DNA of 60,626 nt from positions 1 through 60,626 of the forward strand of contig AKKQ01000005.1 of the NCBI GenBank assembly GCA_000276965.1. The letters are read 5' to 3'. This document shows, piece by piece, positions 1,455 to 29,284 of the stretch (its first letter is position 1; each line of letters starts with the position of its first letter). The notes beneath the pieces were generated by a model, which saw nothing but the letters and a program-made list of their open reading frames with translations, did no database searches and was not told where the DNA came from. This DNA is from Thiovulum sp. ES. GTDB taxonomy: Bacteria; Campylobacterota; Campylobacteria; Campylobacterales; Thiovulaceae. The position numbers and the translations under genes were made by a program.

Positions 1455-2786
1455 TCATCGTGAGAGTATGGATTTAAAATCGTATCTGTAATCAATTTTA
1501 ACTTTTGAAGAAGTTTCACTTTCGAAACCTTTTTTAAGTCCAATTAGCTTTCCAACAGTTCTTGAATGTTGTTCAGGATCTGTTAAATCTTCTTTGTCAA
1601 GAAGCTTTTTAAATTTTTTAAAAAGAACCTCCTCACTATTTTGACTATCTTCCTGCTTTTTCTTAATCTCCTTTAACCTTTCAACCTCTTTTCTTAGGTA
1701 ATTTGCACAAGCAGGATAATCGAATTCTGAAAAATGCTTTTCAGCTAATTCAAAATAGTTGAGATGTTTTTTTACAAATGGTTTTTCAAGGTTATCCTCA
1801 CTTTTAAGAGATATTTCATATTTTTTCTTAAAGCTACTTTTGTAAACTTCAAATAGTTCCCTATCGTGAGTTAGGAATATGACCTGAAAATCAGAGAAAT
1901 CTTCTTTTAAAACTTTTAAAAGTTTCATTCTATTGGACATATCAAGAGAGATAAGAAGATCATCTAAAACTAAAACTCTAATACTATCCCCAGTTTCAAG
2001 TTCTGCAAATTTTTTAATAATTGCAAAATATATTGAGATAGCTAAAGCTGATAATCTCGCTTCATTAAAAAATAGATGATGTTTTTCAATATTTTTATCT
2101 CGGTAACTTAACTCTATATTTACAATAAACTCTGTTCCATTCTGATTTTCTGAAAACTCTTTGTTAAAGAAGAAATCTTCTAAATTAAACTCATCAGAAA
2201 GTTTTTGAATGAAATATCTTATATTTTCTAATAGAGAATTAACAATCTCTTTAAGTTTTTCAAAATACTCATCTGGATTTGTTATTGAAGAGAGAGTTTT
2301 TCCACCCTCAATTTCATAGTTTTTAAATAGTTTTTTTAAAACAGGATAGATATTAACACTCTTTTTATGAAAATCAATATCTCGGTAGTTCAGTTTAAGG
2401 AGAGATTTATAATCTAAAATTGGCTTTAATATTGAGAATTGTGTAAGATAATCTTCTGTCATATTAAAATTATCATCATCTAAAATAGTAGTATCACCAT
2501 TAGAAAGTTCAAAACTCAATTCAGTAGAGCTATTTGTGAATATATTCTTGCTATCTAAGAACTCACTCTCTTCAATTACATCTTTAGCTAAAAACTCAAA
2601 AGCTTTAAAAATAGAGCTTTTTCCACTTCCATTTTCTCCAAAAATAATTGTATTTTCAGAATCAAAGTTAAAAGTGTTATGGTTCTCATCATCTCCAAAA
2701 AATCTAAAATTATGAAGTTGTAAAGATTTGATTTTTAAAAGATTTATTTCAATTTCAGGTTCTAAACTATGGTTACTATTTGCCAT
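1455..2786 (-). CDS. ABC/SMC-type AAA ATPase translationally coupled to the RM enzyme
   Basis: Walker A GENGSGKSS, Walker B/D-loop VLVLDDLLISLD, and LTHD. Its start overlaps the stop of the upstream RM gene by 11 nt. About 130 aa of helical C-terminal tail follow the ATPase core. Confidence 0.75.
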   Translation of the reverse strand: MANSNHSLEPEIEINLLKIKSLQLHNFRFFGDDENHNTFNFDSENTIIFGENGSGKSSIFKAFEFLAKDVIEESEFLDSKNIFTNSSTELSFELSNGDTTILDDDNFNMTEDYLTQFSILKPILDYKSLLKLNYRDIDFHKKSVNIYPVLKKLFKNYEIEGGKTLSSITNPDEYFEKLKEIVNSLLENIRYFIQKLSDEFNLEDFFFNKEFSENQNGTEFIVNIELSYRDKNIEKHHLFFNEARLSALAISIYFAIIKKFAELETGDSIRVLVLDDLLISLDMSNRMKLLKVLKEDFSDFQVIFLTHDRELFEVYKSSFKKKYEISLKSEDNLEKPFVKKHLNYFELAEKHFSEFDYPACANYLRKEVERLKEIKKKQEDSQNSEEVLFKKFKKLLDKEDLTDPEQHSRTVGKLIGLKKGFESETSSKVKIDYRYDFKSILSR

Positions 2787-5700: not shown

Positions 5701-6585
5701 AATTCTGTTCAACCAGATAATATTTATCTCAAAAGCTTTCTCAAAATCTAAATCGCTATTCTCCAAAAAAGTAAGCTCTAAAAATGAGCCAGAATCTCTC
5801 TCTTTTTTCCGAACAATTTTCTGAATTCCATCTATTTTTCTCTCTTCAACTCCAAAAATATGTAAAAGCTCTTGATAGAAACTCTCATCAAGTGAGTTCA
5901 TATCTTTTTCGGCATCGATTTCAAGTAGATTTTTTGGTGAAAGAAGTTTGTAAATTGCTGTGAGTTCTCTTTTTAGCTCAAAAATCTTTAAATTTTCTAA
6001 ATCTTTTTCAAGCTCCTCAATTTTAGAAATTTCAAACTTTTCAAAATCTATTTTTGTATATTTCACATCTGAAAAATCAAAGTTTCTTAGAATATCTAAA
6101 TATATATCTCCTGTTTTTGCACTTTTTCGATACCTTGGAAACTCTTTTGATGAGACAATTTTCTCAATTTCAGAAGCTTTAAAAATATAGAGAGTTTTGT
6201 AATCTGTAATTATGAGATGTTTAATTGAAGAGCTTCTATATTCAGAATAGTAATAACAAATTTGGGCAAATGATTTTTTTGCAAAATTTTCATCACTTAT
6301 CATCTCCGAACTATCTGGCTTTTTTGTTTCAATAATAACTTCAATCTGCTTATCTTGAAAAATTGCTAAATCGATATTCTCAAAATTATTTATTTCAGAA
6401 TTTCCAAAATCAAAGGAGTTAAGAATATTTTGTAAATAAGTTTCACCTTTTCTTTCTCTTGAAATATCTTGAATTTTTCCTAAATATATTTTCAACTCTT
6501 TCAGAAATCGCAAAAAGTTCTCTTCTGAAATTGTTGAATTCGAGTATGAGTGTGTTAGAAAGTTTCTGTTTTTGATTTGGTTCAT
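2776..6585 (-). CDS. type IIG restriction-modification enzyme (fused PD-(D/E)xK endonuclease and gamma-class N6-adenine methyltransferase)
   Basis: 1269 aa. N-terminal nuclease-like motif DLAIF...EVIIETKK. Methyltransferase motif I VLDPAVGSGHIL and motif IV ANPPYIRVQ. A large C-terminal region is consistent with a target-recognition domain. Confidence 0.85.
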   Translation of the reverse strand: MNQIKNRNFLTHSYSNSTISEENFLRFLKELKIYLGKIQDISRERKGETYLQNILNSFDFGNSEINNFENIDLAIFQDKQIEVIIETKKPDSSEMISDENFAKKSFAQICYYYSEYRSSSIKHLIITDYKTLYIFKASEIEKIVSSKEFPRYRKSAKTGDIYLDILRNFDFSDVKYTKIDFEKFEISKIEELEKDLENLKIFELKRELTAIYKLLSPKNLLEIDAEKDMNSLDESFYQELLHIFGVEERKIDGIQKIVRKKERDSGSFLELTFLENSDLDFEKAFEINIIWLNRILFLKLLEARLVFMHPNFKFFMNIETLSDFQQLETLFFEIMAVEISERKPHLEKFKQIPYMNSSLFERKYFEEKRTGLCEIRNLNNTLEIGLFEKSILGSGKLKTLDYLFKFLDSYDFGSNKYQEVTKVDKTLIKSSVLGLIFEKVNGYKDGSHFTPSFITTKLAKDSLDRFPKNSLQNIKVLDPAVGSGHILVSLLNELVVRQAYLEDEFGNSKKISVDIENDEIFIADEEQYIKNENGNFPKEAIRIQRKMFHLKEKIIENNLFGVDINSKSVEIARLRLWIELLKWSYYDENGKFTTLPNIDINIKVGNSLLSRFEVKQKLEKKKTGELLNLVKEYISTKEKNQKKQIEKDIFKIKESFIGKLSRENSDIKKIRNLLDKYLDTFGEIEVGFWEKYTEKLMVTGEKTKGYKKDLKPILELHKKIEFLEKMPESFEWRFEFPEVLDENGDFLGFDLIVANPPYIRVQGLDREKSEYYKEIFSSAVGSYDIYVLFVEKFLPLLKDGGNLNFIMPHKWINSTFGKGLRGLVNQNISQFISFGEYLIFDNAMTYTSLLMMHKEKQDNLKYIDFVEKPKTKEERKDIPKEEKHDEVSQFLQNLKDDDFINIKTETLGSEPWIFKEKKVMDILKKLEEQPLRVSDIFERIFTGLQTSGDDIYLLECSEISENENCLECFSKEMRKREIEKPFVFEKEFLKPILKGNDVHRYEKLKNKFFVIFPYKFVDGKAELYSENEISEKFPESYKYLKFFEKEFRGRERGRLENDSFWFKYIYPKNLEFCQSSTKLVTPDITLGINLTFGNEFCLKSALYGLTIKEDFKKSLKFFLGILNSKLTWFFLQNTGTVLANGYFRFNPKYMNPFPLPKPTPESEKVLTNLVDYILFSKSNNLKKEANLIEAVIDIVVFGLYFEKEMKDANCYILDRLSDKLQPLKNFENLETKTEYINALYNFFSKDSKIQRSLIHSYKLVDEVKIINGK

Positions 6586-15460: not shown

Positions 15461-17368
15461 TTAACTAATTGGAGTTCCAATTTTTCGCGGTTTTTCTGGA
15501 CGAATTAGTGAAAGTCCATTTTCATCTTTTCCAGCAAGAACCATTCCTTCAGACATGTGTCCCATCAATTTAGCAGGTTTGAGATTTGCAACTACACAAA
15601 CTTGAGTGTTTAAAAGTTCCTCTTTTTTGTAGTATTTACGAATTCCTGCAAGAATTTGTCGTGGTCGCTCTTCACCTAAATCAACTCTCATTTTATAAAG
15701 CTTGTCGCTTTTTGGCAACTCTTCAACTTCAATGATTTCACCGATCTTGATTTTTGTCTCAAAGAATTTATCAATTGTGATAACACCCTCAATTTTCAAC
15801 TCTTTCGGTTTCTCCTCTTTTTTCTCTTCCTGTTTCATTTTAGGTTTATCAACTCTTGGGAAAAGTGCAGAAACTTTTTGGATTTTAAATTCTGTTCGCA
15901 CATCTTTTTCAGTGATGATTTTTTTATAACTTTCAGCAGAAATTTCAACATTTAGAGCTTTTGCCATCTCTTCACCACTTTTTGGCATGATTGGATAAAT
16001 CAGGAGAGAAACACGAGAAAGAAGATTTGAGATGAAAACAAGTAGCGACTCGACCTCATCGGGATTTGTTTTGATTTTTGCCCAAGGTTCACTTTTTTGA
16101 ATAGCACCATTTCCAATTGCAAGAATTTCCCAAATATCTTCTAAATATCGGTGAATTTGCATTTTAAAAATATGCTTTTCAAGTCCGCTGATGATTTCAT
16201 CAACTTTCGCTAATTGGCTTTCAAACTCCCCTAAACTTGCGGAAAATTTGAGTAAAAAATATTTGTCTCCCATTCCAATTAAACGGTTTAAAAGATTTCC
16301 AAGTGAATTTCCTAAATCTCCATTGATACGATTAATAAGAGCTTTTTCAGAAAAATCCCCATCTTGACCAAACGGAACTTCACGAAGTAAAAAATATCTG
16401 AAAGTATCAATTCCGTAAGCATCAACAACTTCTCGAGGTTTTACGATATTTCCGACAGATTTGCTCATTTTTTGTCCATCTCGAGTCCACCAACCGTGTG
16501 CCGAAATATGATGAGGTAGAGGTAAATCCAAACTCATTAAAAATGCGGGCCAATAAATTGCATGGAATCTTAAAATATCTTTTCCAACAATATGAGTTTT
16601 TGCCGACCAAAAATCCATATTTTTTTCATCGTCGCCATAACCAAGTGCTGTAATATAATTTAGAAGTGCATCCAGCCAAACATACATAACATGATGAGGT
16701 TCGTTCATCGATTCTGGCAATTTAACACCCCAATCAAAACTTGTTCGCGAAATTGATAAATCCTTTAAACCACCCTGAACAAAAGAGATAATTTCATTTC
16801 TTTTTGAAGTTGGCAAAATAAATTCTGGATTTTTTTCGTAAAGTTCCAAAAGCTTATCTTCATAATTTGAGAGTCTGAAAAAGTAGCTCTCTTCTTCAAT
16901 TACTTTTGTCTCTTTTCCGCAATCTGGACAAGAATTTTCCCCAATCAGTTGTGTGTTTGTAAAAAAGCTCTCACATGAAATACAGTAATTTCCGCTATAT
17001 GAACCTTTGTAAATATCACCTTTTTGAAACATTTTCTCAAAAGCGATTTGAACACCTTTTTTGTGATAGTCGTCTGTGGTTCTTATAAAATGGTCATATT
17101 TGATTCCAAAATCATCCCAAAGTTGCTTAAATTTTCCAGAAATTTCGTCTGCATACTCTTTAGGGGTTCGACCTCGTTTTTTTGCACTCTCTTCAATTTT
17201 CTGACCGTGTTCGTCTGTTCCAGTTAGCAAAAAAGTTTCGTATCCGAGAAGTTTTGAATACCGAGAAACGGCATCCGCAATTATTGTTGTGTAGGCATGT
17301 CCGATATGTGCTTCATCATTCACATAGTAAATCGGAGTAGTTATATAAATTTTATTACAAGATGACAA
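15461..17368 (-). CDS. metG: methionine--tRNA ligase with C-terminal tRNA-binding (Trbp111-like) domain
   Basis: HIGH motif (AHIGHAY), KMSKS, a zinc knuckle CISCE...CPDCG, and a C-terminal OB-fold block KIGEIIEVEELPKSDKLYKMRVDLG. Confidence 0.95.
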   Translation of the reverse strand: MSSCNKIYITTPIYYVNDEAHIGHAYTTIIADAVSRYSKLLGYETFLLTGTDEHGQKIEESAKKRGRTPKEYADEISGKFKQLWDDFGIKYDHFIRTTDDYHKKGVQIAFEKMFQKGDIYKGSYSGNYCISCESFFTNTQLIGENSCPDCGKETKVIEEESYFFRLSNYEDKLLELYEKNPEFILPTSKRNEIISFVQGGLKDLSISRTSFDWGVKLPESMNEPHHVMYVWLDALLNYITALGYGDDEKNMDFWSAKTHIVGKDILRFHAIYWPAFLMSLDLPLPHHISAHGWWTRDGQKMSKSVGNIVKPREVVDAYGIDTFRYFLLREVPFGQDGDFSEKALINRINGDLGNSLGNLLNRLIGMGDKYFLLKFSASLGEFESQLAKVDEIISGLEKHIFKMQIHRYLEDIWEILAIGNGAIQKSEPWAKIKTNPDEVESLLVFISNLLSRVSLLIYPIMPKSGEEMAKALNVEISAESYKKIITEKDVRTEFKIQKVSALFPRVDKPKMKQEEKKEEKPKELKIEGVITIDKFFETKIKIGEIIEVEELPKSDKLYKMRVDLGEERPRQILAGIRKYYKKEELLNTQVCVVANLKPAKLMGHMSEGMVLAGKDENGLSLIRPEKPRKIGTPIS

Positions 17369-17494
17369 ATTCTAACTCCAAAGTTTTAAATCTATCAAAT
17401 TTTAACACAAACTTAAATTAATTTTAAGTTAAATATCAATATTTAGAAATTAGATTTTTTTGAAAATCCGCCTTAAAAAAGCGGAGATAGGTTA

Positions 17495-19117
17495 CTATTT
17501 TATAGAGAATGTTGAGAATATTTTGTTTTCTTTTATTTGTTTAGAAGTCGAAAGAAGCTCTTTTCCGTCGTGGTGAATTTTGATAATTCTGTTTTCGTCA
17601 AATTCCCAATCAAGCTGAATCGACTCATCTTTGTTGTAAAATTTATCAAGAGTGATAAATGCACCATCAATTTCTCGTAATTTGTGCTGATCTTTTGCAT
17701 CAACTCCGTAATAGAGAAAAATATCTGCTCGTTTTGTAGTTTCACTAAATTTAAAATTGTAAGTTCCAGTTTCGGGAGCTTTGACATCATGCGGAATCAA
17801 TTTCTCAAATCTTCTACCATTTCGGATAAAAATCGAGTCGCTCATGACATCGGTAATTTTGATTTTTTTCAATTTGTGATTATTAAAATTGTAGCTATGA
17901 ATTGAAGCACCTTTTGAAACTGCTTCTCGTTCAGTAAAATCAACAATCTTAGTTGTATTGCCGAAAAATTTACGAAGAGTCTCTTCAACAAGATAGAATT
18001 TACCAGAACCACCAGTAAGAATCACCATATCAATATCATCTTTTTGCAACTTTGACTTTTTGAGAGTATTGATAAGTGGCTGAAGAAGTTTCCCATTATT
18101 CGCGATGAGGTCGGATAAAATTTCTCGTAAGTTTTGATCATTCAGAGTCAAATCACGAATTGAGAGACCATCGATAATTTCAAAATTTACTGTTTCTCTT
18201 TTTCTCTGTTTTAATTTTGGATTCTCTGTGCTTGAAATCTTTTTTGAGAGTGAAACTTTGTGTCTTTCTGCATGAGAAACAATTCTTGAAACAATCACAG
18301 CTTGTTCTTCTGGAGTTCTAGCAGAAATAGACGGATTTATTTTTTCAAACTCTTCTAAGAAATAAGAGGCAATTCTTTTATCAATATCATCTCCACCAAA
18401 ATCCATTCGTTCTGAACGACCAAGAATTGAAATATCAAAATCGTCATCATCTAACAAGATGTTTGCAATCGAAATATCTAGTGTTCCTCCGCCAATATCA
18501 TAAACAAGGACTTTTCGGTTTTTATCAAAAAATTCATCTCCAAACTCAAAAGAGTTTTCAGAATTCAAAAAATACAATAAAACAGCTGTCGGTTCATCAA
18601 GCAAATTTACATGCTGAAAACCTGCAAGATGTCCAGCTTCAATTGTAGCTCGTCTCTCATCACTATTAAATCCAGCAGGAATTGTAATCGTAACAGCTTC
18701 AAAGTCGTCTGAACCGAGTTGTTGTTTTACAGAATCTCTTATTTGTTTCAAAAGAATTGAAGAGAGTTCAGTCATATCAAAAGATATTTTGTCATTTTTA
18801 TCATTTTGAAGAGGAACATCAATTTCGGATTCTCCACCAATTCGAGTCTTTACAGAACGAATAGTTTGGAGGGGCTTATGCCCGTCGCTGTAAATCTTTT
18901 TTGCAAACTCACCAACATAAATTGTCTCTGTTTCTCGATTGATGTAAATGCTTGATTGCAAACCATTCATATTTGTTACAGAGTTATGGCTAGAGTCGTG
19001 CTGGAAAATATTGAGACTTCTTAGTTTTTCCATTGGATTATCTCTCCGTCCAGAAATCTCAACAACTGATACAGTGCTTTCCGTAGTTCCTAAATCAATC
19101 CCAATACTATTTCCCAT
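17495..19117 (-). CDS. Hsp70-family ATPase paralog 4 (NBD plus beta-rich C-terminus, no helical lid)
   Basis: Phosphate-1 GIDLGTTEST, connect LDEPTAVLLYF, phosphate-2 VYDIGGGTLDIS. The adenosine motif is degenerate (LTGGSGKFYLV). The start overlaps the upstream gene by 11 nt. Confidence 0.8.
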   Translation of the reverse strand: MGNSIGIDLGTTESTVSVVEISGRRDNPMEKLRSLNIFQHDSSHNSVTNMNGLQSSIYINRETETIYVGEFAKKIYSDGHKPLQTIRSVKTRIGGESEIDVPLQNDKNDKISFDMTELSSILLKQIRDSVKQQLGSDDFEAVTITIPAGFNSDERRATIEAGHLAGFQHVNLLDEPTAVLLYFLNSENSFEFGDEFFDKNRKVLVYDIGGGTLDISIANILLDDDDFDISILGRSERMDFGGDDIDKRIASYFLEEFEKINPSISARTPEEQAVIVSRIVSHAERHKVSLSKKISSTENPKLKQRKRETVNFEIIDGLSIRDLTLNDQNLREILSDLIANNGKLLQPLINTLKKSKLQKDDIDMVILTGGSGKFYLVEETLRKFFGNTTKIVDFTEREAVSKGASIHSYNFNNHKLKKIKITDVMSDSIFIRNGRRFEKLIPHDVKAPETGTYNFKFSETTKRADIFLYYGVDAKDQHKLREIDGAFITLDKFYNKDESIQLDWEFDENRIIKIHHDGKELLSTSKQIKENKIFSTFSIK

Positions 19118-20420
19118 TTCTACTCTCCTTTTTCTCTTCAGAAGTTTCTACTTTTGTTTCGGGTTTTTCTGAACTTGTTTCAGAATTTTCAACTTTTACG
19201 ATTTCATCAACTTCAGCTTTTTCAACGACCTCATCGCCAATTTTGATAGCATGTTTTAGAATTTTGTAAGTTTTACCAATTTCAACATTTCCAAGAACAA
19301 CGAGCAAATCATCACTGTTTGTTTTTGTAACTTCGATTTCTTGATCAACTTCAAATTCAGTTTGCACAACATCACCAAAAACAGAAGAGACCTCTAAAAA
19401 CTTAGATGGAAAACTTTCGTGAAGTTGTTTTGCAAGTTCTAAGTTCTTTTTTTCCATTCCAATTTTTTCAGCTTTTGCAATCTCACTTTCTAACTCTTTT
19501 TTGTGTTTCTGTTCAACTTTTTGGAGGTTTTCCAAATCACCCTTTTTTGAAATATAAAGCCGAGAAATTTTTGAAAGTTCAGCTAAACCATCTCTCATAT
19601 ACTCCTCAAGTTCATCAATCGCTTTTTCCTCTTTTGGCACAACTGAATCTTTTTTAGCATCACTGTTTCCAATTTTTTCAGGCAATTCAGAAAGAGTTTT
19701 TTCCAAACTTTGGAGATTTTGCAATTGTCTTGTTTGCCCCTGAATTGACTCAACATTAGTAGAAAGCTCTTTCAATTTCTCTTCTAGTTTTTCTTCAAGA
19801 ACAAATTCAAAATCTTTAGATTTTAAATAGTCATTTGGGATTTTCATTTTTTGAGATTCAGGAAATTTGATTTGAGAAATTCTGTTTTTAATATCTGCTG
19901 TTTCATCAAAAACAGTTTTCTCAATATCTTTTTTCATATTTTCAACTTCAACTTTCCAAAAATCAAATTTTGGCATTGCATTTTTGATTTTTTTCAAAAG
20001 AGAGTTTTTATCATCTTCTTTTAAAACATCAGTGCTGTTTGCAACTTCATCAAGCAATTTGCCTTTTTGATCCAAATCTTTTTGCATTGCAACAAATTCT
20101 TTTTTTAAATATTCTTTGATTTCTTCTTTTAGTGTTCGTAAGTCATCTGAGACTCTTGCAAGTTCTAAGTTTTCGTTTGGTTCTTTGTTGTTCAGGTAAG
20201 TTTGTTCATCTTTTTGTCCTTCTGGTTTTTTAAATTTGCTGTATTTCTCATCTTTTTTATTTTGACTAGCCATTTTTTTTCCTTTAGTTTGATTTGGTCT
20301 TTTTGTTTCTTGTTGTTTTTCTACTTTTGAAATTGTATTTTCCGTAGCAGACTCTTTTTGTCCAAAAACTACATCAACTCCGAATTTAATCGGAGCTGTA
20401 ATAATTTTAAAAGGATTCAT
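19107..20420 (-). CDS. K/E-rich coiled-coil protein with a small beta-rich C-terminal domain
   Basis: 437 aa. Residues ~90-330 are long heptad-like charged helices. The C-terminal ~90 aa are beta-like (VVQTEFEVDQEIEVTKTN...GNVEIGKTYKILKHAIKIGDEVV). Overlaps both neighbouring genes. Confidence 0.6.
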   Translation of the reverse strand: MNPFKIITAPIKFGVDVVFGQKESATENTISKVEKQQETKRPNQTKGKKMASQNKKDEKYSKFKKPEGQKDEQTYLNNKEPNENLELARVSDDLRTLKEEIKEYLKKEFVAMQKDLDQKGKLLDEVANSTDVLKEDDKNSLLKKIKNAMPKFDFWKVEVENMKKDIEKTVFDETADIKNRISQIKFPESQKMKIPNDYLKSKDFEFVLEEKLEEKLKELSTNVESIQGQTRQLQNLQSLEKTLSELPEKIGNSDAKKDSVVPKEEKAIDELEEYMRDGLAELSKISRLYISKKGDLENLQKVEQKHKKELESEIAKAEKIGMEKKNLELAKQLHESFPSKFLEVSSVFGDVVQTEFEVDQEIEVTKTNSDDLLVVLGNVEIGKTYKILKHAIKIGDEVVEKAEVDEIVKVENSETSSEKPETKVETSEEKKESRNGK

Positions 20421-21913
20421 TGTTCGATTTCTTCAAATTCACCCCGAAGAACCTCGTTTTTGTTTTCATCGTAAAAGATGTAGCCAATTTCACCAGAGTC
20501 ATCATCTCGATAGAGTGAAAGGAAAATTGTATTTGATGGAAAAACTGTGCCGTCAATTGTTGCTTTTCCAATTTTTTCACACTCATCAATTTGCCCACTT
20601 TCACCCTCGTAAAATGAGAGAATAAAATCCTCTTTGAGATTAGAGTTTCCAATTCGTAATTTATATTCTGGAGAAATTTCACCGTAAGGGCTGTTTTTTC
20701 GTAGGATTTTTTGAAAACGGTTTCCAATTGCGACACCAACAGATTTACTTGTTTTTCTGATAACTGTATATTTTAGAGAGTCATCAACAGAAAGACCTGC
20801 CAAAATACCTGCACCGTGTCCAACAAGTTCCCCTAAGTTTTTTCGAGCTTCAGGTTCAAATCCGAAAAAATCACGAACAATATCTTTGATAATTGGAATT
20901 GAACTTGAACCACCAGCTAAAATCACTCGGTCAATATCAGATGGATCTAAATCAGCATCAGCAATTGCAATGTCAAGAGCATCTTCGATTTCACCAACAA
21001 TATTTGCAGTTCGTAGCCAATCTTCAAACTCATCTCGAGAGAGTTCTCGGTCAATAACTTTTGACTCATTATTTATACTCAAACCACCTTTGTAAATCTC
21101 AACTTCATCTTCTTCACTAAGGAGTTCTTTGTTTTCTCTTGCCTCTTTTAAAAGTTCTCTTTTAAGTATCTTTTGCTCTTTTTCAACTTGAATATCTGAA
21201 AGACTTATTTTTAAATCTTGTTCTAAAAACTTATTGACGATTTTTGCATCAATATTTTTACCTCCAAGTTTTTCAACTCCACCAGTATTTAAAACTTCGA
21301 TTTTTGCATGTTGCTTGTCATCTTTTTCAAACTTAAAAATAGTGAGATCAAAAGTTCCTCCCCCGAAATCAAAAACAACGATGTTCTCTTTCTTTCCATT
21401 CTCAATTTCATCACCAAAAACACCAAAAGAGATAGCAGCAGCAACAGGCTCTTCTACAAGTTTTATAACAGGTATTCCAGCATTTTCTGCCGATTTTTTG
21501 ATTCGTTTTCGATACTTATCTCCATAAGCATAGGGAACAGTGATAACAGCACCATCAATTTTTTTTCCACCATGAGTAGCTTCAACTTTTTCACGAATTC
21601 CTGTAAAAATCATCTCAGCAATATCTGAAGCTGTAACTTGACGATCACCTAAGTTTGGAACTCTCCACTTTTGGTTATCTGAAGTGATGTGTCTTTTTAC
21701 ATCATCAAAAAAGTTTAGAGTGTCATCCATTCGGTTTCTTTTTCCGAGAATATATTTTCCATCTCCCTCGATGTAAATCACATTGTCGAAAATATCACTA
21801 CCTGCATAGCTTCCCATATTTGCAACAGCAACAGCATCTTTTCTGACAAAGTCATATTTTGTTACAAAGTTTGTCGAGTTCCCAAAATCAATTCCAATAT
21901 ACAATTTATCCAT
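20417..21913 (-). CDS. Hsp70-family ATPase paralog 3
   Basis: Divergent phosphate-1 GIDFGNSTNF. VEEPVAAAISFG, VFDFGGGTFDLT and LAGGSSSIPII are present. The beta-sandwich-like C-terminus has no lid. 4-nt and 8-nt overlaps with neighbours. Confidence 0.8.
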   Translation of the reverse strand: MDKLYIGIDFGNSTNFVTKYDFVRKDAVAVANMGSYAGSDIFDNVIYIEGDGKYILGKRNRMDDTLNFFDDVKRHITSDNQKWRVPNLGDRQVTASDIAEMIFTGIREKVEATHGGKKIDGAVITVPYAYGDKYRKRIKKSAENAGIPVIKLVEEPVAAAISFGVFGDEIENGKKENIVVFDFGGGTFDLTIFKFEKDDKQHAKIEVLNTGGVEKLGGKNIDAKIVNKFLEQDLKISLSDIQVEKEQKILKRELLKEARENKELLSEEDEVEIYKGGLSINNESKVIDRELSRDEFEDWLRTANIVGEIEDALDIAIADADLDPSDIDRVILAGGSSSIPIIKDIVRDFFGFEPEARKNLGELVGHGAGILAGLSVDDSLKYTVIRKTSKSVGVAIGNRFQKILRKNSPYGEISPEYKLRIGNSNLKEDFILSFYEGESGQIDECEKIGKATIDGTVFPSNTIFLSLYRDDDSGEIGYIFYDENKNEVLRGEFEEIEQ

Positions 21914-22661
21914 TTACAATTCTCCACATATTTACTTTTCCGTCTGCAATTGCTCTATTTTCTGCAACCATGTAAGGAAATGAGATTACATTTTTAATTA
22001 CATGAGCTAGGTTTCTGTCTGTTGTGTTGCATTTATCACACTCTTCTGGCTGAATAAAATCATATTTTTTATCATCAAGTTTTTCACCAGCTTTTAATTC
22101 CAGAGTGAAAATTCCAATGTTTTTCAAGAATGAGTTGAAGATTTGTAAAACTTGCTGGTAAAACGGTTTTTCATCAATTCCACTTTCGAGAACTCTCACA
22201 ACTTCAGAAATAAAGCTAGAAAAGTTTTTATCAATTGCGATGAGGTACTCATCTGAAAGTTTTTGCAAATTCCAATTCTCATCTATCTTGAATTTTTTCA
22301 CTGCTGAAATTAATTTTCGTGTTCTGTTGTCAATTGTTTTGCCTATAATTTCGAGAGACTCAATTTCACTTTCTGAAAGTTGTTTTTCAACTCTGTCCAA
22401 AAAATCATCGAATTTCTCTGCAAAAGAATCAACTTCATCTAAAAATTTCTTTTTTTGACTTTCAAAATCATCATGAGATGTCGGTTTTCCAAAAAGAGAT
22501 TTTTCACCCTTTTCAATCATAAAAAGAGTTAAGTAATTCACATCTTTATCACTTTCAGAATCTTTTTGAACAATTGCAATTGGGCGAAAATGCCCAAAGT
22601 CTTTTGTTAAAATCTCATCAAACTTTTTATTTAGACTTACGATTTTGTCAAAGTTATACAT
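21906..22661 (-). CDS. GrpE-like putative nucleotide-exchange factor (start re-set to the MYNFDK ATG)
   Basis: The track ORF runs to 22769, but that extension lies inside the upstream gene. The ATG at 22661 gives an ATGTATAA overlap with the upstream stop. A helical N-terminal part is followed by FLKNIGIFTLELKAGEKLDDKKYDFIQPE and ...VISFPYMVAENRAIADGKVNMWRI. This resembles the GrpE four-helix-bundle/beta-domain junction. Similarity was judged by eye only. Confidence 0.4.
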   Translation of the reverse strand: MYNFDKIVSLNKKFDEILTKDFGHFRPIAIVQKDSESDKDVNYLTLFMIEKGEKSLFGKPTSHDDFESQKKKFLDEVDSFAEKFDDFLDRVEKQLSESEIESLEIIGKTIDNRTRKLISAVKKFKIDENWNLQKLSDEYLIAIDKNFSSFISEVVRVLESGIDEKPFYQQVLQIFNSFLKNIGIFTLELKAGEKLDDKKYDFIQPEECDKCNTTDRNLAHVIKNVISFPYMVAENRAIADGKVNMWRIVNG

Positions 22662-24672
22662 CTGAATTTCCTTTGATTGAAATATCTCGGCTATCAACTT
22701 TTGTGCCATCTCGGTGAAAAACTTCAGCAGAAACAAGAAGTGTGTCATCTCGACCAAGCTCAAACTCAACTCTAATTGTCAATTCTCCAGCTTTTGCTTT
22801 TGGAATTCCGCTAAATTGAATTGTGTCGATAAAATCAACTCCCTTGTCAAAAACTCTTGAACTTTTTCCAAAAACTCTTGAATTTCTGTTATAAATCTCC
22901 ACATTGATATTCTCTTGGTCATCTCGTTCAGTTTGGAAATCTTTTGTAAAACTAACTGGTAAATCTGTTCCCTCTGAAATCAACTCAAAAAATTGATGTC
23001 CTCGAATTGCAACTCCAAAATCTTTAATTGCTTCATCACTTTCAAAACTTTTATCATCAATTCCATCTTCAGAACCCCAAGTTCGTACAGCTTCAATAAC
23101 TCCACCTTTTGAAATAACGGTAGAAGTGTCTTGAGTGAAAGATGGAGTTTTGCCAAGAGTATCAATGAGAGAATCTCGAATACTTGGAATATTTGAGCTA
23201 CCACCAGCAAGAACGACCTCATCGATGTCATCAGCCATAAAATTGAGACCAGACATTAAATCTTTAACAACATCAAGAGCCTCTTTCCGAATTTCAGTAA
23301 TTGCGCTCTCAAACTCTCTTCGAGTAATTGTGTAGCTTAAATTTATATTTCCGTTTTGAGTTTTAAAATCAGAAATCTGAATTTCCGTTTGTTCAAATTC
23401 AGAGAGTTCAATTTTTGTATTTTCGGCAGAACTTAAAACAAAAGCAACATTTGTGTTGTAATCTTTTTCAGATAATTCACTCTCATCTTTGTCAAACATA
23501 TCAATATCATGTTCATCTAAAATTTTCTCAAAAATAAGTTCAGTCAATTTCTTTGTTACATCTTTTCCACCGAGTGAATTGTTTCCATTAGCACCAACAA
23601 CTTTAATATCAATATCTTTGCCGTTTTTCTCAGTTTCCAAAATTGAACAATCTAGTGTCCCGCCACCAAAATCAAAAACTAAAATTCGTTTGTCTGCTTC
23701 CGACTCAATTGCATAGGATAAACCAGCTGAAACAGGCTCTTTTTGGATACGAACTTCACCAAATCCTGCCTCTTCTCCAGCCTCTTTAATTATCGTGATT
23801 TGACTTGGATTGAAATTTGCAGGAACAGTAATTACAGCTTTTTCAATGTAATCTTTTAGATATTTCTCACTCTCCTCTTTTAAATGTTGCAAGAAAATTC
23901 TTGAAGCATCTTTTGGAGTAATTGTTAAATCACTGCTATTTTTTACTTGCTCTTTTCCTTTTAAAGCACGAAAATCAATAAGCGAAACTGTTTTAATTCC
24001 ACCAACAACATCTTCTGCTTTTACCTTTAAACCTTTGTCATTTGTAATCAAATATGTTTCTGGATTTAAATCTGTAAAAGTTTTAGCAATTGACAAAACA
24101 CGATTATCATTTTCACTGTTTTTCGTATCTTTTTCCAAGTCATCTGGCAAAATATCTAAATTGCTATCTTCAAAAAATATGTTTCCAGAATCTTTTAAGT
24201 CGTCAATACTTTTCATTGCCTCTTTTGCACTAACTTCGATATCTGGATTGTTTGCTAAATTGTGGAGTTCATCAACAACTTTATTTGGCAATCTCACAAA
24301 ATCCGACTTTCCAAACTCTTTTAAAATTTCAGGTGCATCAATAAAGATATTTGTATCAATTACAAAATTTATTTTAGTTTCGACCTCATCGCTATTAAAA
24401 GCAAAAGTATATTTTGTAGAACTTCCAATATCACTTTTAAACTCTTTTAGTAGGAGTTCTGGTTTTACTGCACCTTTTGCAATTGCTCTTGAACCAAAAA
24501 CGATCTTTTTTGAATCTTCAAAAAATAGTGCTGTTGGAATAATCTTTTTTTTCTTGAAAAGAACCTGCTCGATTTGTCCCTTGTCAAAATATGAGACGAC
24601 TGAATTTGTTGTTCCAAAATCTATTGAGATTGTTTTTCCATTTGCTTCTGTGAATTCTAACTCTTCTGCCAT
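22654..24672 (-). CDS. Hsp70-family ATPase paralog 2 with a PIN nuclease domain inserted in the NBD
   Basis: Hsp70 motifs SIDFGTTNS, AVITVPANF, QKEPVSAGLSY, VFDFGGGTLDCS and LAGGSSNIPSI. Residues ~101-236 form an insert with PIN-type acidic motifs: VIDTNIF, VVDELHNL, ENDNRVLSIA and ITNDKGLKVKA. Confidence 0.8.
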   Translation of the reverse strand: MAEELEFTEANGKTISIDFGTTNSVVSYFDKGQIEQVLFKKKKIIPTALFFEDSKKIVFGSRAIAKGAVKPELLLKEFKSDIGSSTKYTFAFNSDEVETKINFVIDTNIFIDAPEILKEFGKSDFVRLPNKVVDELHNLANNPDIEVSAKEAMKSIDDLKDSGNIFFEDSNLDILPDDLEKDTKNSENDNRVLSIAKTFTDLNPETYLITNDKGLKVKAEDVVGGIKTVSLIDFRALKGKEQVKNSSDLTITPKDASRIFLQHLKEESEKYLKDYIEKAVITVPANFNPSQITIIKEAGEEAGFGEVRIQKEPVSAGLSYAIESEADKRILVFDFGGGTLDCSILETEKNGKDIDIKVVGANGNNSLGGKDVTKKLTELIFEKILDEHDIDMFDKDESELSEKDYNTNVAFVLSSAENTKIELSEFEQTEIQISDFKTQNGNINLSYTITRREFESAITEIRKEALDVVKDLMSGLNFMADDIDEVVLAGGSSNIPSIRDSLIDTLGKTPSFTQDTSTVISKGGVIEAVRTWGSEDGIDDKSFESDEAIKDFGVAIRGHQFFELISEGTDLPVSFTKDFQTERDDQENINVEIYNRNSRVFGKSSRVFDKGVDFIDTIQFSGIPKAKAGELTIRVEFELGRDDTLLVSAEVFHRDGTKVDSRDISIKGNSDV

Positions 24673-24733
24673 TTTTTCCCTTTGCTTTGTTGTTTAAATT
24701 ATATTTTTTGGACAGGACAAAACCTGTCATTTA

Positions 24734-26716
24734 TTAAAAACTTTGTAGTGAGCTTGTGATTTTTTGGAAAATTGATGACAATTGACTAAAGTCCGAACCT
24801 GAATAGTAGTGTGCCGATGAGGTTGCAAGATTTCTCAAAAAGATTTCATCAACTCCATCACCAATTCCAATCGTGATTAGAGTTGTGTCAGATTTCATAT
24901 AATTCCCTTCACTCATTGCACTATCTTGCCAATCTGGATAGCCATCAGTAACAATAATTGCTAGTTTTTCATTTCTTGCTCCAGAAAGAACCTGTCTTGC
25001 CTGTTCAATTCCACTAGCCATATTTGTCGAGCCTCGACATTCAATATTTGAGATTCTGTATTGCAAATCACTTTGAGAATTTGAGAGATTTGAAACAACT
25101 GAAGCAGAGCTACCAAATTCAACAACACCAACATTGTGAGTATTCAAATCAATCATGTCAGAAACAAGAAGCTGACAAGCATTTTTTGCTTGTTGTATTG
25201 GAGTCCCACACATGCTTCCAGAAATATCAACAGTTAAAACAATGTCAAAAGATTTTTCGTATGTTTTTTTAACTCGTTTCACTGCACCTTTTTCAATATC
25301 AACAGCCTCTTTTCTGCTACTTCCAGTTCTCACATCTTGTGCCGTAACATGTAAAATTCTGTTTTCGTCAAACTCAAAAGTAACATCGATTTGTGGAACT
25401 CCAGCAGGTGCTTTTTCAATATTTGAGAGAGAGAAACCTCCGTAATAATCATTCATATTTACATCAGAATCTTCACCCTCGAAAATCTCAATCTGAATTT
25501 CTGGTTGGTAATTTGAGACAGTTGTGTATCTTTTTGTAAATGAGATTGGGTATTGCTGATTTTTTTTCAAAATTGCTGAAAATTCATCATTCACCATTTC
25601 AATACCGAGTGAGTGAGAAATGATGTCGATAATTTGAATGCTGTCTCCAGAGTTTGCAGTAAGAGAAGCACCCATTGCTACAAGTTTGTCAAGTGGTTTA
25701 TCCGAAAAAGGTTGTTTCCCAAAAAAGTTTGTAACAAATTTTTGAACGGCAGGAATTCGTGAGCTACCACCAACAAGAACAACTTTATCAATATCATTTA
25801 TAGAAAAACCTCCGTTTGAAAGAGTATTTTCAATTGTGTTTTCAATTTTTCGGAGTGTATTTTTTGCGATTTTTTCAAATTCAGCACGAGTCAAATTCAT
25901 AGAGAGGGAATAACCACCAAAAAGATTTGGGATTTCAATCTCACTGTTTTCAGCATCAGAAAGTGCAATTTTTGTCTCTTCAGCATATTTCAGAATTGTT
26001 TGCCGAGCTTTTCTATATTCATCCTGTGGAAGTCCCGATTTTTTCAATGAAGATAAATCTGTTCCGTGATCTTTTCGGATATGTTTAAAAACTGCTTCGA
26101 TAATGTGATTGTCAAAATCATCACCACCGAGTCGATTGTCTCCGTCAAGTGCCAGAGTTTGGAATTTTCCTGCTGAAACTTGTAGAATTGAAGTATCAAA
26201 AGTTCCTCCACCAATATCTACAATAAATAGCTTTTCGTTTGCTCCACTCTCAAAACCGTAAGCAATTGCTGCTGCAACTGGTTCGGTAATAATTTGCTTG
26301 ACTTTAAAACCAGCATTTTCACCTGCTCGTTTTGTCTCATCAATTTGTGAAGATTTAAAATAAGCAGGAACAGTAATAACTGCTTCGACCTCATCGTTAC
26401 CAGTATGTTTTTTAATTCCTTTTTTGATTTCACTCAAAATTTCTGTTGCCACATCAGTTGGTGAAAAAGTTCTATCTTCAATTTTCCAACTTTTTTTCAT
26501 GTCGCCCATAAATGTCTTGGACGAACTGATATAATTTTCTGGATTTGTTAAAGATCGTTTTTTTGCAGAATCACCAATTCTAACTTTTCCACTTTCGTAA
26601 TACAAAACAGATGACAAACTTTCCAATCTACCAAATTTGATTTGCTCAAAATTTCCTCTATCGAAAATTGTTGCCACACTGTTTGTTGTTCCTAAATCAA
26701 TACCTACTTTTATCAT
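24734..26716 (-). CDS. Hsp70-family ATPase paralog 1 fused to a C-terminal vWA (MIDAS) domain
   Basis: Canonical GIDLGTTNS, ITEPVAAAIAYG, IVDIGGGTFDTS and LVGGSSRIPAV, plus an SBD-beta-like segment. Residues ~490-657 carry DISGSM...GSTNM...IIVTDGYPD, a complete DxSxS-T-D MIDAS. Confidence 0.85.
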   Translation of the reverse strand: MIKVGIDLGTTNSVATIFDRGNFEQIKFGRLESLSSVLYYESGKVRIGDSAKKRSLTNPENYISSSKTFMGDMKKSWKIEDRTFSPTDVATEILSEIKKGIKKHTGNDEVEAVITVPAYFKSSQIDETKRAGENAGFKVKQIITEPVAAAIAYGFESGANEKLFIVDIGGGTFDTSILQVSAGKFQTLALDGDNRLGGDDFDNHIIEAVFKHIRKDHGTDLSSLKKSGLPQDEYRKARQTILKYAEETKIALSDAENSEIEIPNLFGGYSLSMNLTRAEFEKIAKNTLRKIENTIENTLSNGGFSINDIDKVVLVGGSSRIPAVQKFVTNFFGKQPFSDKPLDKLVAMGASLTANSGDSIQIIDIISHSLGIEMVNDEFSAILKKNQQYPISFTKRYTTVSNYQPEIQIEIFEGEDSDVNMNDYYGGFSLSNIEKAPAGVPQIDVTFEFDENRILHVTAQDVRTGSSRKEAVDIEKGAVKRVKKTYEKSFDIVLTVDISGSMCGTPIQQAKNACQLLVSDMIDLNTHNVGVVEFGSSASVVSNLSNSQSDLQYRISNIECRGSTNMASGIEQARQVLSGARNEKLAIIVTDGYPDWQDSAMSEGNYMKSDTTLITIGIGDGVDEIFLRNLATSSAHYYSGSDFSQLSSIFQKITSSLQSF

Positions 26717-26776
26717 TCATCTTCCCTTTAAATTTTCAGAATTGTAAAGTCCTTGACGGACTATGATTGTCTAAAA

Positions 26777-28126
26777 CTAGACTCTTCTTTGTAAAAACTC
26801 AATTAGTTTATAGTGTCTATATCTTTGTGAAAAAGTTTCTGTGTTTCTATGTCGCGAATGAAGTTCAACAAGGTTGTTTCCAATTTGATCGATGAGGTCT
26901 TTTGGCAAACCATTAATTTGTTGAAAAATTTTGTAGTTTCCAATATTCCGTGCAAAATGGTAAGCCAGAACTTTTTTAACTCTCCCATCTCCACCATGTG
27001 AATTTACAATCTGTTTAACAAGAGAAGTGTTTCTTTCCAAGTTTCGACTTAAATAATACAAACGAGCAATATTAAATTGTGGATTTCCATTCAACTTATT
27101 TAAAAATTCTTTCAATGAATTAAAGCCTGATGAATCACTCCAGTTTTCAATACTTTCAACAACTTTTTGTTCTTTATCTGAAAAAGAGACTCCTTGATTC
27201 TTTAATTCTGAAATAATGTTTTGTGCTTTTTCTTTACTTTTAAACCTCGGTGGTTCAAGCATTTGTATAAAAAGTCCTTTCATACTCAAAAAATCATAAT
27301 CTGTGTAAGCATCTACAATCTCATCTTCAAAAGAGTTCAGTTTATGGAATTTAGATAGAACTCCACGAACAAGAAAAGGAAGCATATTTTTATCATGTGA
27401 ATTGTTTGCAATAAACTCCATAAGTGCATCAAATCCATCTTCACCGAGATGTTCTAATGATTTAAACCAAATTGCATCTCTGTCTTTGTCATTTTTGTTT
27501 TCTAAAATCCAATTTGCAATATCTCTTTTATCTGAAAGAAGTGTAAAAATACTCTGAAAAAATTGAGAATCTTTTGTTTTGGTGTAATTAAAGATTTCGG
27601 GATTCTTCTTGAATTCACTTTCCAAAAATTGAGGTAAAAGATGCTCTTTTGTTTTCATGTAATCTTTGACAATTCTCTCAAAGCATTCAGTTCGAGATTC
27701 AACCATTTCTGATTTGTTGGCAAAAGTCTTTTTACAATCGTCGAGAGAAGCTTTTTCATTGTAAAGACTGTTGAGAAATTCACGAAAATTTGTATCTGCA
27801 TAAATATTGTTTTCAACAACATCTTTTGAAATTTCTGTGAAATATTGTGGGGGAAGAGATAGGAGTGTCTTTTTGAAAAAATCTTTCACATTTTTGTTTT
27901 GAAAGAAATTTTCTTTAATCAGCCAACTGTTTTTAAGTAAAACTTTGCTGAAGATCTTTGTCCCGTGTTTTTGGGAGAGTGTTTTTAAATCCTGTATTGA
28001 GCTATTTGAGATAGCTTTTCGTATCACTTCATTATCATTTTTACTGATATATAAAGTGTTATCCTTTTCAAAACGGAGGTCGAGAGCTTTTTCCACTTTT
28101 GAGAGTGTTTCCATGCAAGTCTCCAA
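26777..28126 (-). CDS. hypothetical all-helical protein heading the Hsp70 cluster
   Basis: 449-aa ORF, same strand, 60 nt upstream of the Hsp70-vWA gene. No motif I can recognise. The repetitive helical character suggests an ARM/HEAT-like scaffold. Confidence 0.5.
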   Translation of the reverse strand: METCMETLSKVEKALDLRFEKDNTLYISKNDNEVIRKAISNSSIQDLKTLSQKHGTKIFSKVLLKNSWLIKENFFQNKNVKDFFKKTLLSLPPQYFTEISKDVVENNIYADTNFREFLNSLYNEKASLDDCKKTFANKSEMVESRTECFERIVKDYMKTKEHLLPQFLESEFKKNPEIFNYTKTKDSQFFQSIFTLLSDKRDIANWILENKNDKDRDAIWFKSLEHLGEDGFDALMEFIANNSHDKNMLPFLVRGVLSKFHKLNSFEDEIVDAYTDYDFLSMKGLFIQMLEPPRFKSKEKAQNIISELKNQGVSFSDKEQKVVESIENWSDSSGFNSLKEFLNKLNGNPQFNIARLYYLSRNLERNTSLVKQIVNSHGGDGRVKKVLAYHFARNIGNYKIFQQINGLPKDLIDQIGNNLVELHSRHRNTETFSQRYRHYKLIEFLQRRV

Positions 28127-28242
28127 TTATTTTTGAGAATTGTAAAAAATCAGAAAGACAGAAATAGTCTATTTTAATTCTGTTTCTAAACATGGTCTTA
28201 AATTATAAAAAAAAACTATACTTTGTCAAGTTACGGAATTCT

Positions 28243-28416
28243 TTGTTACTTCGTAAAAAACTTTCAATTTTTGACACTCGTGGATACAACGAAAAAGAAC
28301 ATAACTCTTTGATTCAGCAAAAACGAGGTGAATATTTAAAAACTTTAACATCAATGGTAGAAGTTGGATTTGTCAAAGACTATGGTAATTTGAGAGAGGT
28401 TCTTTTTAAAATTTAA
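28243..28416 (+). pseudogene. inverted 3' fragment of the KilA-N-like paralog family
   Basis: Encodes LLRKKLSIFDTRGYNEKEHNSLIQQKRGEYLKTLTSMVEVGFVKDYGNLREVLFKI. This is near-identical to the C-termini of ORFs 54100-54852 and 55735-56655 but on the opposite strand, and the N-terminal body is absent. Confidence 0.7.
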
Positions 28417-28430
28417 ATTTTTTCTACATC

Positions 28431-28454
28431 TTTGTCGGAAAAAGTTCCGACAAA
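28431..28454. terminator. perfect 10-bp hairpin at the 3' end of fliH
   Basis: tttgtcggaa-aaag-ttccgacaaa lies immediately beyond the fliH stop and the fragment stop. The flanks are A/T-rich. Confidence 0.4.
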
Positions 28455-28456
28455 AA

Positions 28457-29284
28457 CTAATCGACTTTTGAGAGAATCGACTCTTTTACAACTTTAAATC
28501 TATCCATAATATTTCCCTCAACTGTTCCGACATCTGAAGAGAGAATTACTCCGCCTCGAGAAATTGCACTATCTAAAATAATTTTAACATTCTCCATTTT
28601 TGATAGTGAAGTTTTTAAATCATCAATATCTCCACTATTTGCATGAATTGTAATTTCTGTCGCTTCATTTAAACTTTTGATAAGAGATTTTGAGAGATTT
28701 ATCGCAACTTGACCGCTATTAAAACTAATTTCACCAGTTAAAACCTCTTTTGCAATTGCAATTGATGTATGAACAAGCTCTTTTTCAAAATTCTCTGAAA
28801 GACTCTCAAATTGAGTTGAAATTGTTTCCAATTTTTTCATTGAATTCCCAAGCCGTTCTAAATTTTGATGATACTTATTTTCATTATTTCTTTCAGCTTG
28901 TAAAATTCCATCATGAACACCTCTTTGGTAAGAATCGTGCTTGATACTTTTTAATTCTGCTTGAAAAAGCTGTTCTTGATTATCAAGTTTGCCTCTTAAA
29001 CTAGCAATTTCATTTGTTAGAATTTCGCTTTTTTGAATTAGAGTCTCAATTAGTTCATCTCGTTTTCTAACAGATTCATTTTCAGAGCTTTGCTTCTGTT
29101 TTACTGGTTCATTTTTTGTTGGAAGTCCAGCTTGAAAATCTTCACTCTCTTTTTTTTCTGGTTGTCTAATTTGAGTTTTTAAAAATGGCTGAAAATCTGT
29201 TCCGCCTTTTGATTCATCTAAATCTACAAATGAAAATTGGACAATTTCGTGTTTCTCTTTGTGGTTTTCTAAAACGACGCCCAT
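28457..29284 (-). CDS. fliH: flagellar export apparatus protein FliH
   Basis: Charged coiled N-terminal half. FliH-type C-terminus (AKEVLTGEISFNSGQVA...ISRGGVILSSDVGTVEGNIMDRF). Confidence 0.65.
   Translation of the reverse strand: MGVVLENHKEKHEIVQFSFVDLDESKGGTDFQPFLKTQIRQPEKKESEDFQAGLPTKNEPVKQKQSSENESVRKRDELIETLIQKSEILTNEIASLRGKLDNQEQLFQAELKSIKHDSYQRGVHDGILQAERNNENKYHQNLERLGNSMKKLETISTQFESLSENFEKELVHTSIAIAKEVLTGEISFNSGQVAINLSKSLIKSLNEATEITIHANSGDIDDLKTSLSKMENVKIILDSAISRGGVILSSDVGTVEGNIMDRFKVVKESILSKVD

Follow-up and report, generated by a model that had tools for sequence, protein, structure and literature searches.

A horizontally moving cassette of four lidless Hsp70 paralogues with an embedded PIN domain: a candidate chaperone-based conflict system in Thiovulum sp. 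ES

Hsp70 is the best-studied chaperone, and its use in bacterial genomes had been seen as lying almost exclusively in proteostasis; a few immune systems with a single Hsp70-like unit have been predicted by comparative genomics. Here we describe a seven-gene cassette on the minus strand of a 60,626-nucleotide stretch of DNA from Thiovulum sp. ES (Campylobacterota; NCBI GenBank assembly GCA_000276965.1, contig AKKQ01000005.1), which was analysed at its full length and is hereafter called the window. The cassette stands out for its four co-evolving Hsp70 paralogues, two private exchange-factor-like proteins and a nuclease domain lodged inside one of the ATPase domains.

The open reading frame (ORF) listing of the window contains seven co-oriented minus-strand ORFs spanning 17495-28126, which we name A to G in operon order, with A first (28126) and G last (17495). 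An earlier, sequence-only reading of this DNA had reported these seven genes together with overlaps of 4-11 nucleotides, and its coordinates were reproduced: C and D overlap by 8 nucleotides, D and E by 8, E and F by 4, and F and G by 11, making four translationally overlapping junctions, and gaps of about 60 nucleotides separate A from B and B from C. The ORF listing starts D at a TTG (22769); an ATG at 22661 sits in ATGTATAA, overlapping the stop of C, and this overlap, together with orthologue lengths of 244-290 residues, makes the ATG the most likely start of D (251 residues). A promoter-like TTGACA-16-TATAAT (28202-28229, minus strand) lies about 75 nucleotides upstream of A and is the sole 12/12 consensus match in 17200-28600, where sites are as many in total as expected from shuffling. 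The GC content of the cassette, about 33%, does not differ from that of its flanks. A look for public sequencing runs over 20000-26000 listed none, and no RNA holder.

Four of the products, all encoded on the minus strand, are members of the Hsp70 family: B (24734-26716; 660 residues), in which a lidless Hsp70 (residues 1-477) is fused to a von Willebrand factor type A (vWA) domain; C (22654-24672; 672 residues), a lidless Hsp70 whose ATPase domain contains an inserted PIN_4 domain; E (20417-21913; 498 residues), a lidless Hsp70 with a short substrate-binding β part; and G (17495-19117; 540 residues), a divergent lidless version. Their matches to Pfam HSP70 (PF00012) have E-values of 1.7e-110, 3.8e-65, 3.9e-58 and 6e-50, respectively (370, 221, 198 and 171 bits against a cut-off of 20.6). 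When aligned with the DnaK of this genome, all four keep phosphate-1, phosphate-2, the equivalents of K70 and E171, and the adenosine motif, with E bearing the variant phosphate-1 motif DFGNSTN and its remaining motifs intact. In G the residues and motifs D8, K73, E175, D207-GGGT and TGGSGK are invariant in eight orthologues, and the ATPase motifs are invariant among the orthologues of C as well. Each of the four stops after the β part of the substrate-binding domain, followed in B by the vWA domain, and none has a helical lid. B, which carries a DnaK-like linker and substrate-binding β domain, is the closest paralogue to DnaK by score, and G forms the longest branch of the paralogue tree.

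The NCBIfam equivalog cut-offs for DnaK and HscA (648-1019 bits) are not reached by these proteins, whose best scores are 160-390 bits. No DnaJ Pfam match and no HPD motif were found in any of the seven proteins, no J-domain protein is listed in the related loci, and a separate housekeeping grpE-dnaK operon is present on contig C9 of the same genome. Profile searches and the DnaK alignment agree on these points with the sequence-only reading, which had recognised four lidless Hsp70s with ATPase motifs, noted the lack of a J-domain (HPD) protein in the cluster, and concluded that this is not the dnaK-grpE-dnaJ operon.

The housekeeping dnaK of the genome (contig C9, locus L101 2938-5132, minus strand) is itself split, and the idea that the cassette paralogues replace a broken genomic dnaK was rejected, because the split is due to a group I intron and not to a frameshift. 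The intron (L101 4274-4560, minus strand) lies inside phosphate-2, between VFDLGG and GTFDV, and matches Rfam RF00028 over the full model with 76.5 bits (gathering score 50; E-value 1.8e-19). Group I introns are rare in bacterial chromosomal protein genes; the dnaK of a relative from another genus (G002) is split at the same place. Two other genomes of the order (G017:C12:14388-16178 and G009:C65:945-2561) have a second divergent GrpE beside an Hsp70 paralogue of about 551 residues, a pair that differs from the cassette.

The HSP70 match of C is split, its residues 13-75 and 250-650 corresponding to DnaK 3-65 and 83-458, respectively, and residues 103-220 (24013-24366, minus strand) match Pfam PIN_4 (PF13638; E-value 1.2e-16, 61.7 bits against a cut-off of 21.9). 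This split match indicates that the PIN domain is an insertion in lobe IB of the ATPase domain, replacing approximately DnaK residues 66-82, rather than a terminal fusion. Its four acidic residues (D106, E135, D189 and D212 of C, in DTN, E, NDN and T/S-ND) are invariant in 14 orthologues. The PIN_4 family takes in the SMG6 and PhoH2 RNases (PMC5499597), and by this membership the PIN domain of C is a putative RNase that should cut single-stranded RNA. The nearest PIN_4 relatives outside the cassette (loci L238-L291, for example L240 1880-5866 and L253 8042-10387) occur commonly in gut metagenomes and are fused C-terminally to Upf1-like superfamily 1 (SF1) helicases (AAA_11/AAA_12) or to OST-HTH domains.

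The vWA domain of B occupies residues 491-651 (24764-25246, minus strand) and matches Pfam VWA (PF00092) with an E-value of 5.4e-23 (82.5 bits against a cut-off of 23.8). Its metal ion-dependent adhesion site (MIDAS) is intact, and the motif DISGS...T...TDG is kept in 11 vWA-type orthologues. Both the insertion of a PIN domain in one Hsp70 and the fusion of a vWA domain to another had been noticed from the letters of the sequence, and the Pfam matches and the conservation of the PIN acidic residues and the MIDAS agree with them. Across the loci, B carries vWA, TerD or nothing as its C-terminal domain. One locus (L018 4731-9058) has two tandem B-type Hsp70s, of which one has TerD replacing vWA and the other a 260-residue C-terminal extension without a family match.

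The remaining three genes encode proteins without a clear family. D (21906-22661, minus strand; 251 residues) comes after C in all loci. A search with a profile of eight orthologues found 228 relatives at E<=1e-3, 120 at 1e-10 and 42 at 1e-30 among 1.84 billion representatives, mostly of 245-290 residues. [quoted passage not shown] When the D family was compared by hhalign with 30 GrpE sequences of relatives, D 169-245 aligned onto GrpE 105-172 with the C-terminus in register (P 0.004), and GrpE is the sole named family among the ESM Atlas clusters nearest to D. A weak GrpE match (E 0.006) was seen in only 2 of 83 D-family members, and a wide search with VIA-align, in which the β domain was barely tested, returned four-helix bundles over residues 58-184, with GrpE not listed. 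The earlier description of D as GrpE-like draws on the modelled fold and on weak profile evidence and does not extend to a match with the Pfam or NCBIfam profiles. In one locus (L235 103-2616) an 837-residue protein that has an S1 RNA-binding domain and leucine-rich repeats and ends in a D-like (GrpE-like) region is encoded directly upstream of A of a complete cassette.

A predicted complex of C (residues 1-540) with D gave interaction prediction scores from aligned errors (ipSAE) of 0.60, 0.47 and 0.60 in three runs, against 0.00 for the best control, with contact agreement between runs of at least 74% and a partner pLDDT of at least 76. The mark applied to such predictions is reached by 58 of 80 solved complexes and by 2 of 110 mismatched pairs; at ipSAE values of 0.60 or below, it is reached by only 7 solved complexes and by both mismatches, and the verdict on the pair is accordingly one of weak support.

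F (19107-20420, minus strand; 437 residues), always directly upstream of G, has no Pfam match. It had been taken for a coiled-coil protein, which is not the whole of it: the N-terminal half, rich in K and E, differs in length from one orthologue to another, and the C-terminal 150 residues are conserved and model as GrpE-like. The AlphaFold2 model of this module (residues 257-410; 19191-19652, minus strand), with a pLDDT of 86, has a 74-residue helix, a short helix and a β domain. Its top nine Foldseek matches are all GrpE chains (E-values 0.012-0.26), and VIA-align matched it to GrpE with Z scores of 5.9-4.2 over nearly the whole model, the others being single-helix matches to CorA (4.8-4.9) and then unrelated matches at 3.0. 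Used as a query, the alignment of the module found 11 proteins, and a word-based search found the query alone. No significant similarity was detected by hhalign between the D and F families, and some long D-family members have F-like coiled-coil N-termini. Taken together, D and F appear GrpE-like, with weak to moderate strength, by several concordant measures, each below the usual significance.

A (26777-28126, minus strand; 449 residues) is an α-helical protein with orthologues in every complete system. A weak Pfam match to the ARM-like GUN4_N (1e-4) and a low-confidence ESM Atlas model (pLDDT 0.61), whose nearest clusters are HEAT-repeat proteins at template modelling (TM) scores of 0.45-0.48, make A look like a HEAT-repeat protein.

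The cassette has a sparse and scattered distribution. With residues 1-260 of C as the query, 14 full-length Hsp70-PIN clusters were found in 5.8 billion, and a scan with the PIN region gave 26 further metagenome loci with the full gene set. Four of the six genomes searched in the family have the cassette (that of the window, G000, and G001, G003 and G005) and two do not (G002 and G004); it is absent from the 35 genomes that represent 25 other families in the order, and a search of 400 further genomes from the phylum yielded no D-family gene. Among the Bacillota the carriers are Peribacillus kribbensis, Fictibacillus halophilus and one Neobacillus, with P. kribbensis the sole carrier among 67 genomes of its family. 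The whole cassette has the same gene order in G001, G003 and G005 as in the window, and the orders A-B-C-D-E-F-G, B-C-D-E-F-G-A and C-D-E-(F)-G-A-B seen across loci are always cyclic permutations. In the maximum-likelihood tree B, C, E and G each form a clade with 100/100 support over 13-14 systems, and the same deep split recurs in each, which indicates that the paralogues are old and were inherited together. A distant, PIN-less variant (L293; GCA_024698045.1, 4131-18994) consists of genes for an Hsp70, a 261-residue protein, a coiled-coil D-like protein, an Hsp70, a 258-residue protein, an Hsp70-vWA protein and a 946-residue protein, and sits downstream of a Phage_base_V (spike-like) gene.

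Several observations bear on the mobility of the cassette. The window copy groups with that of G005, from another genus, and the copy of G001, from the same genus, groups with a metagenome, whereas metG is 81% identical to that of G001 and 70% to that of G005; this conflict between the cassette tree and metG indicates horizontal transfer. In G003, both B and C have in-frame stops. The flanks of the cassette are different in every genome; metG and fliH are adjacent in no relative, and gene order is little conserved even between members of the genus, so that insertion boundaries are not definable. The possibility of a strictly syntenic core locus, raised as a check on the sequence-only reading, does not hold, as the cassette is patchy in the clade, varies in context and also occurs in Bacillota. 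A scan of viral contigs with the PIN region found no relative, which is weak evidence against phage carriage; scans of genome and viral contigs with the G alignment (pattern GIDLGTT) were dominated by ordinary DnaK at 27-32% identity and are uninformative on distribution.

The cluster had been placed between metG and a KilA-N gene fragment. The metG side of this description stands, but the gene directly upstream of the cassette is fliH (NCBIfam 7.8e-56), and KilA-N is represented there only by an inverted 185-bp remnant (28239-28423, plus strand) at the upstream cassette edge. The remnant shares 89% identity with 54093-54277 and with 55761-55945, where the KilA-N ORFs 54100-54852 and 55735-56655 have their 3' ends. 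In all, the window has four KilA-N genes (273-989, 54100-54852, 54938-55600 and 55735-56655), one of them with TPR repeats, and three adjoin a type IV restriction pair (56831-58000 and 58010-58981) made up of McrC (PF10117, 1e-49) and a short McrB-like AAA_5 protein. At 1455-2786 and 2776-6585 the window also has an SMC_N/AAA_21 ATPase gene overlapping the gene of a 1269-residue Eco57I/MmeI-type fused restriction-modification enzyme (DUF7149, DUF7814), a relative of which adjoins metG in G001.

In other genomes the cassette lies directly beside defence genes (McrBC, SIR2, DarT and RAMP), an outcome of the gene-neighbourhood check that the sequence-only reading had proposed. McrB and McrC directly flank it in Peribacillus kribbensis and in the metagenome locus L015, and the McrB proteins of these two loci are homologues. 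The Fictibacillus cassette adjoins SIR2_2 and a NERD/UvrD helicase, and direct neighbours elsewhere include a 1960-residue DEAD/MZB helicase, DarT, a RAMP protein, a 2CompART ADP-ribosyltransferase, radical SAM genes and a Mutator-family transposase. At the very ends of the operon, HerA-like ATPases (L018, L213 and L218) and dynamin-like GTPases (L214, L217 and L230) recur.

On balance, we lean towards the interpretation that the cassette is a self-contained, horizontally moving operon for an Hsp70-centred, ATP-driven conflict system, probably directed against phages or other mobile elements. An NTP-dependent conflict system fits an accessory mobile operon that unites an NTPase core with a nuclease and a swappable sensor-like domain and that has defence genes as neighbours in other genomes; an exchange of domains as on B, which carries vWA, TerD or neither, is characteristic of conflict systems. 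The sequence-only reading had judged a conflict system plausible, and the profile, named-system and synteny checks all favour it as an inferred function: the domain assignments held, no named system matched and the locus is not a strictly syntenic one. To that reading the present analysis adds the second GrpE-like protein (F), the HEAT-like A, and a co-evolving, cyclically permuted cassette that crosses phyla.

In such a system, A would be a HEAT-repeat scaffold for the four lidless Hsp70 ATPases (B, C, E and G), paralogues of ancient origin, with D, after C, and F, before G, as putative divergent GrpE-like nucleotide-exchange cofactors. The variable domain of B, vWA here, might serve as a sensor or regulatory part, and the PIN_4 RNase-type domain in lobe IB of C would be the sole effector. 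An invader-derived or infection-induced protein might be bound by the open lidless clefts, by the MIDAS site or by both; ATP hydrolysis and exchange driven by the GrpE-like proteins could then act as a thresholding switch; and a nucleotide- and cofactor-dependent movement of the lobes of C may unmask the PIN domain, which would cleave RNA and thereby stop growth or infection. More tentatively, and with somewhat less confidence than we place in the conflict-system reading as such, we propose that these proteins could constitute a new class of immune machine, a hetero-oligomer in which the four Hsp70 paralogues, the two private GrpE-like exchange factors and the HEAT scaffold form a sensor and switch whose nucleotide cycle gates RNA cleavage by the in-built nuclease, and that the D family (228 clusters) may mark a larger multi-Hsp70 superfamily with other effectors, for example the PIN-less type of L293.

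A number of points weigh against this interpretation. In the window the cassette is flanked by the housekeeping genes metG/murJ and, at its other end, fliH/petABC, and the defence-gene neighbours elsewhere form a set of single examples rather than a measured enrichment. The likeness of D and F to GrpE is weak (Foldseek E-values of 0.01-0.3): neither protein matches the Pfam or NCBIfam GrpE models (PF01025), and in a comparison of the D profile with PDB sequences GrpE was absent, with only helical-bundle noise such as apolipoprotein returned. The substrate of the PIN domain is assumed from family membership. No J-domain partner that might trigger ATP hydrolysis is encoded in the cassette. The failure of PADLOC to recognise the cassette fits novelty and gives no positive support. 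Finally, defence function, complex formation and stoichiometry are inferred.

Among other explanations, there is a modest chance that the cassette is a specialised stress or proteostasis module comparable to the Ter/TerY loci, in which a team of Hsp70s would attend to particular clients or to metal or envelope stress and the PIN domain would act in RNA quality control. The four Hsp70s look catalytically competent and keep their substrate-binding β domains, the two GrpE-like cofactors suggest genuine chaperone cycling, and the window flanks are of housekeeping type. Furthermore, TerD and vWA, the alternative partners of B, are both components of tellurite and stress-resistance loci. A canonical folding cycle is, however, not possible with neither a lid nor a J protein, and the genome already has its housekeeping grpE-dnaK operon. 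The extreme rarity and patchiness of the cassette, its horizontal spread in conflict with metG, its decay in G003 and the McrBC, SIR2, DarT and RAMP genes directly adjacent to it elsewhere also speak against such a role.

The same McrBC neighbours raise the less probable option of a non-autonomous accessory arm of type IV restriction, which, like the CnuD unit of CoCoNuT systems, would work only with McrBC-type GTPase nucleases. [quoted passage not shown] Most loci, however, lack an adjacent McrBC, and the pair in the window lies 29 kb from the cassette with core genes between. Moreover, the ATPase motifs of CnuD are degenerate (PMC11090510) whereas those of the cassette are intact, genes for a CnuH helicase and CnuE HEPN are absent from the cassette, and it has its own nuclease. 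We consider it more improbable still that the cassette acts for a mobile element as a selfish module of addiction or anti-defence, with a PIN toxin restrained by Hsp70 and GrpE-like partners, and works for its own maintenance. Mobility, patchy distribution, the KilA-N remnant at the cassette edge, the transposase beside one copy and the occurrence of PIN_4 domains in toxin-antitoxin-type proteins (PMC5499597) would all be in keeping with it; yet no integrase, plasmid or phage backbone genes adjoin the cassette in the window, its PIN region has no relative on the viral contigs scanned, and seven genes over ten kilobases far exceed what such a module needs.

If the preferred reading of the cassette as a defence against phages is true, a chaperone cycle would have become an immune switch, lidless Hsp70s would join the small set of protein-sensing modules in bacterial immunity, and the cassette would offer a tractable model of how nucleotide state can gate an embedded enzyme. 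With its own promoter-like site and a length of about 10.7 kb, it is small enough for direct testing, and a Bacillota version is available in Peribacillus kribbensis (L012, from 10001, with the rest of B in GCA_000430765.1), a case served by existing Bacillus laboratory hosts and their phages.

The sequence-only reading had not recognised the architecture as that of a named defence system, and this has held. PADLOC recognised no system in it, giving weak partial matches of B, E and G to PDC-M61B (E-values from 1e-8 to 3e-4) with no other PDC-M61 component, and the full-text literature searched, beyond which further papers may exist, contains no description of this architecture. We therefore place the cassette in the kind of chaperone or NTPase-based conflict systems, as one that lacks the defining features of each named precedent. 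The type III CoCoNuTs, in which CnuD or CnuCD joins an Hsp70-like NBD/SBD to HEAT-like repeats alongside McrBC (Bell et al. 2024; PMC11090510), resemble it, by the description of CnuD, in having an Hsp70-like ATPase with a substrate-binding domain in a predicted immunity operon, and share with it HEAT-like repeats, coiled-coil partners, a vWA domain (TerY, frequent there) and a predicted RNA-targeting effector. In contrast, they have one Hsp70-like unit with degenerate motifs where the cassette has four paralogues with intact ones (PMC11090510), and their HEPN, Vsr or PLD domains, with no GrpE-like genes and no PIN, differ from its GrpE-like genes and PIN domain. They also require the SF1 helicase CnuH and an NxD-type McrB, whereas no helicase or HEPN match was found among the seven cassette proteins and McrBC lies outside the operon, adjacent in 2 of the related loci examined.

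Comparable in another way are the systems based on GAP1-N2 GTPases, which include HSP70 and GrpE, in some cases with a further HSP70 that lacks a peptide-binding domain, and on DO-GTPases, which include HSP70 and tubulin (Kaur et al. 2020; PMC7159879). Like the cassette, these predicted NTP-dependent conflict systems bring together HSP70, an exchange factor (putative in the cassette), vWA domains and variable effectors. They are, however, built on TRAFAC GTPases with FNIII/DnaJ or TPR proteins, whereas the cassette has no such GTPase, DnaJ or tubulin, a dynamin-family GTPase adjoining it in three loci only (L214, L217 and L230), and their GrpE is canonical whereas D and F fail the Pfam GrpE model. 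The ternary MoxR-vWA systems (PMC7159879) follow the same logic, in which a chaperone ATPase goes together with vWA as co-chaperone or sensor and with an effector that varies, but use the AAA+ ATPase MoxR in place of the actin-fold Hsp70 of the cassette, which has no AAA+ match. A DnaK-like domain without lid helices is also fused to EACC1-protease defence modules (PMC12642450), where it takes the sensor position of an immune module; there, however, it is part of a single fused polypeptide that shares about 50% identity with DnaK, alongside a protease and an effector that forms pores, as against seven genes and a nuclease here.

The housekeeping grpE-dnaK(-dnaJ) operon shares with the cassette the actin-fold ATPase, the same catalytic residues, the substrate-binding β domain and, in the cassette as candidates, GrpE-like partners; the cassette Hsp70s are set apart from DnaK by the lack of a lid and of a J protein and by scores of 160-390 bits against cut-offs of 648 or more. 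By analogy with the Hsp110-Hsp70 pairs, in which Hsp110 acts on Hsp70, one Hsp70-family paralogue of the cassette may act on another. The PIN domain of C belongs, with its four acidic residues, to the same PIN_4 family as the PhoH2- and SMG6-type RNases and the fusions of SF1 helicases to PIN_4, and the latter likewise couple an NTPase to PIN; there the PIN domain is appended to a helicase, whereas in C it is inserted inside the Hsp70 NTPase domain itself.

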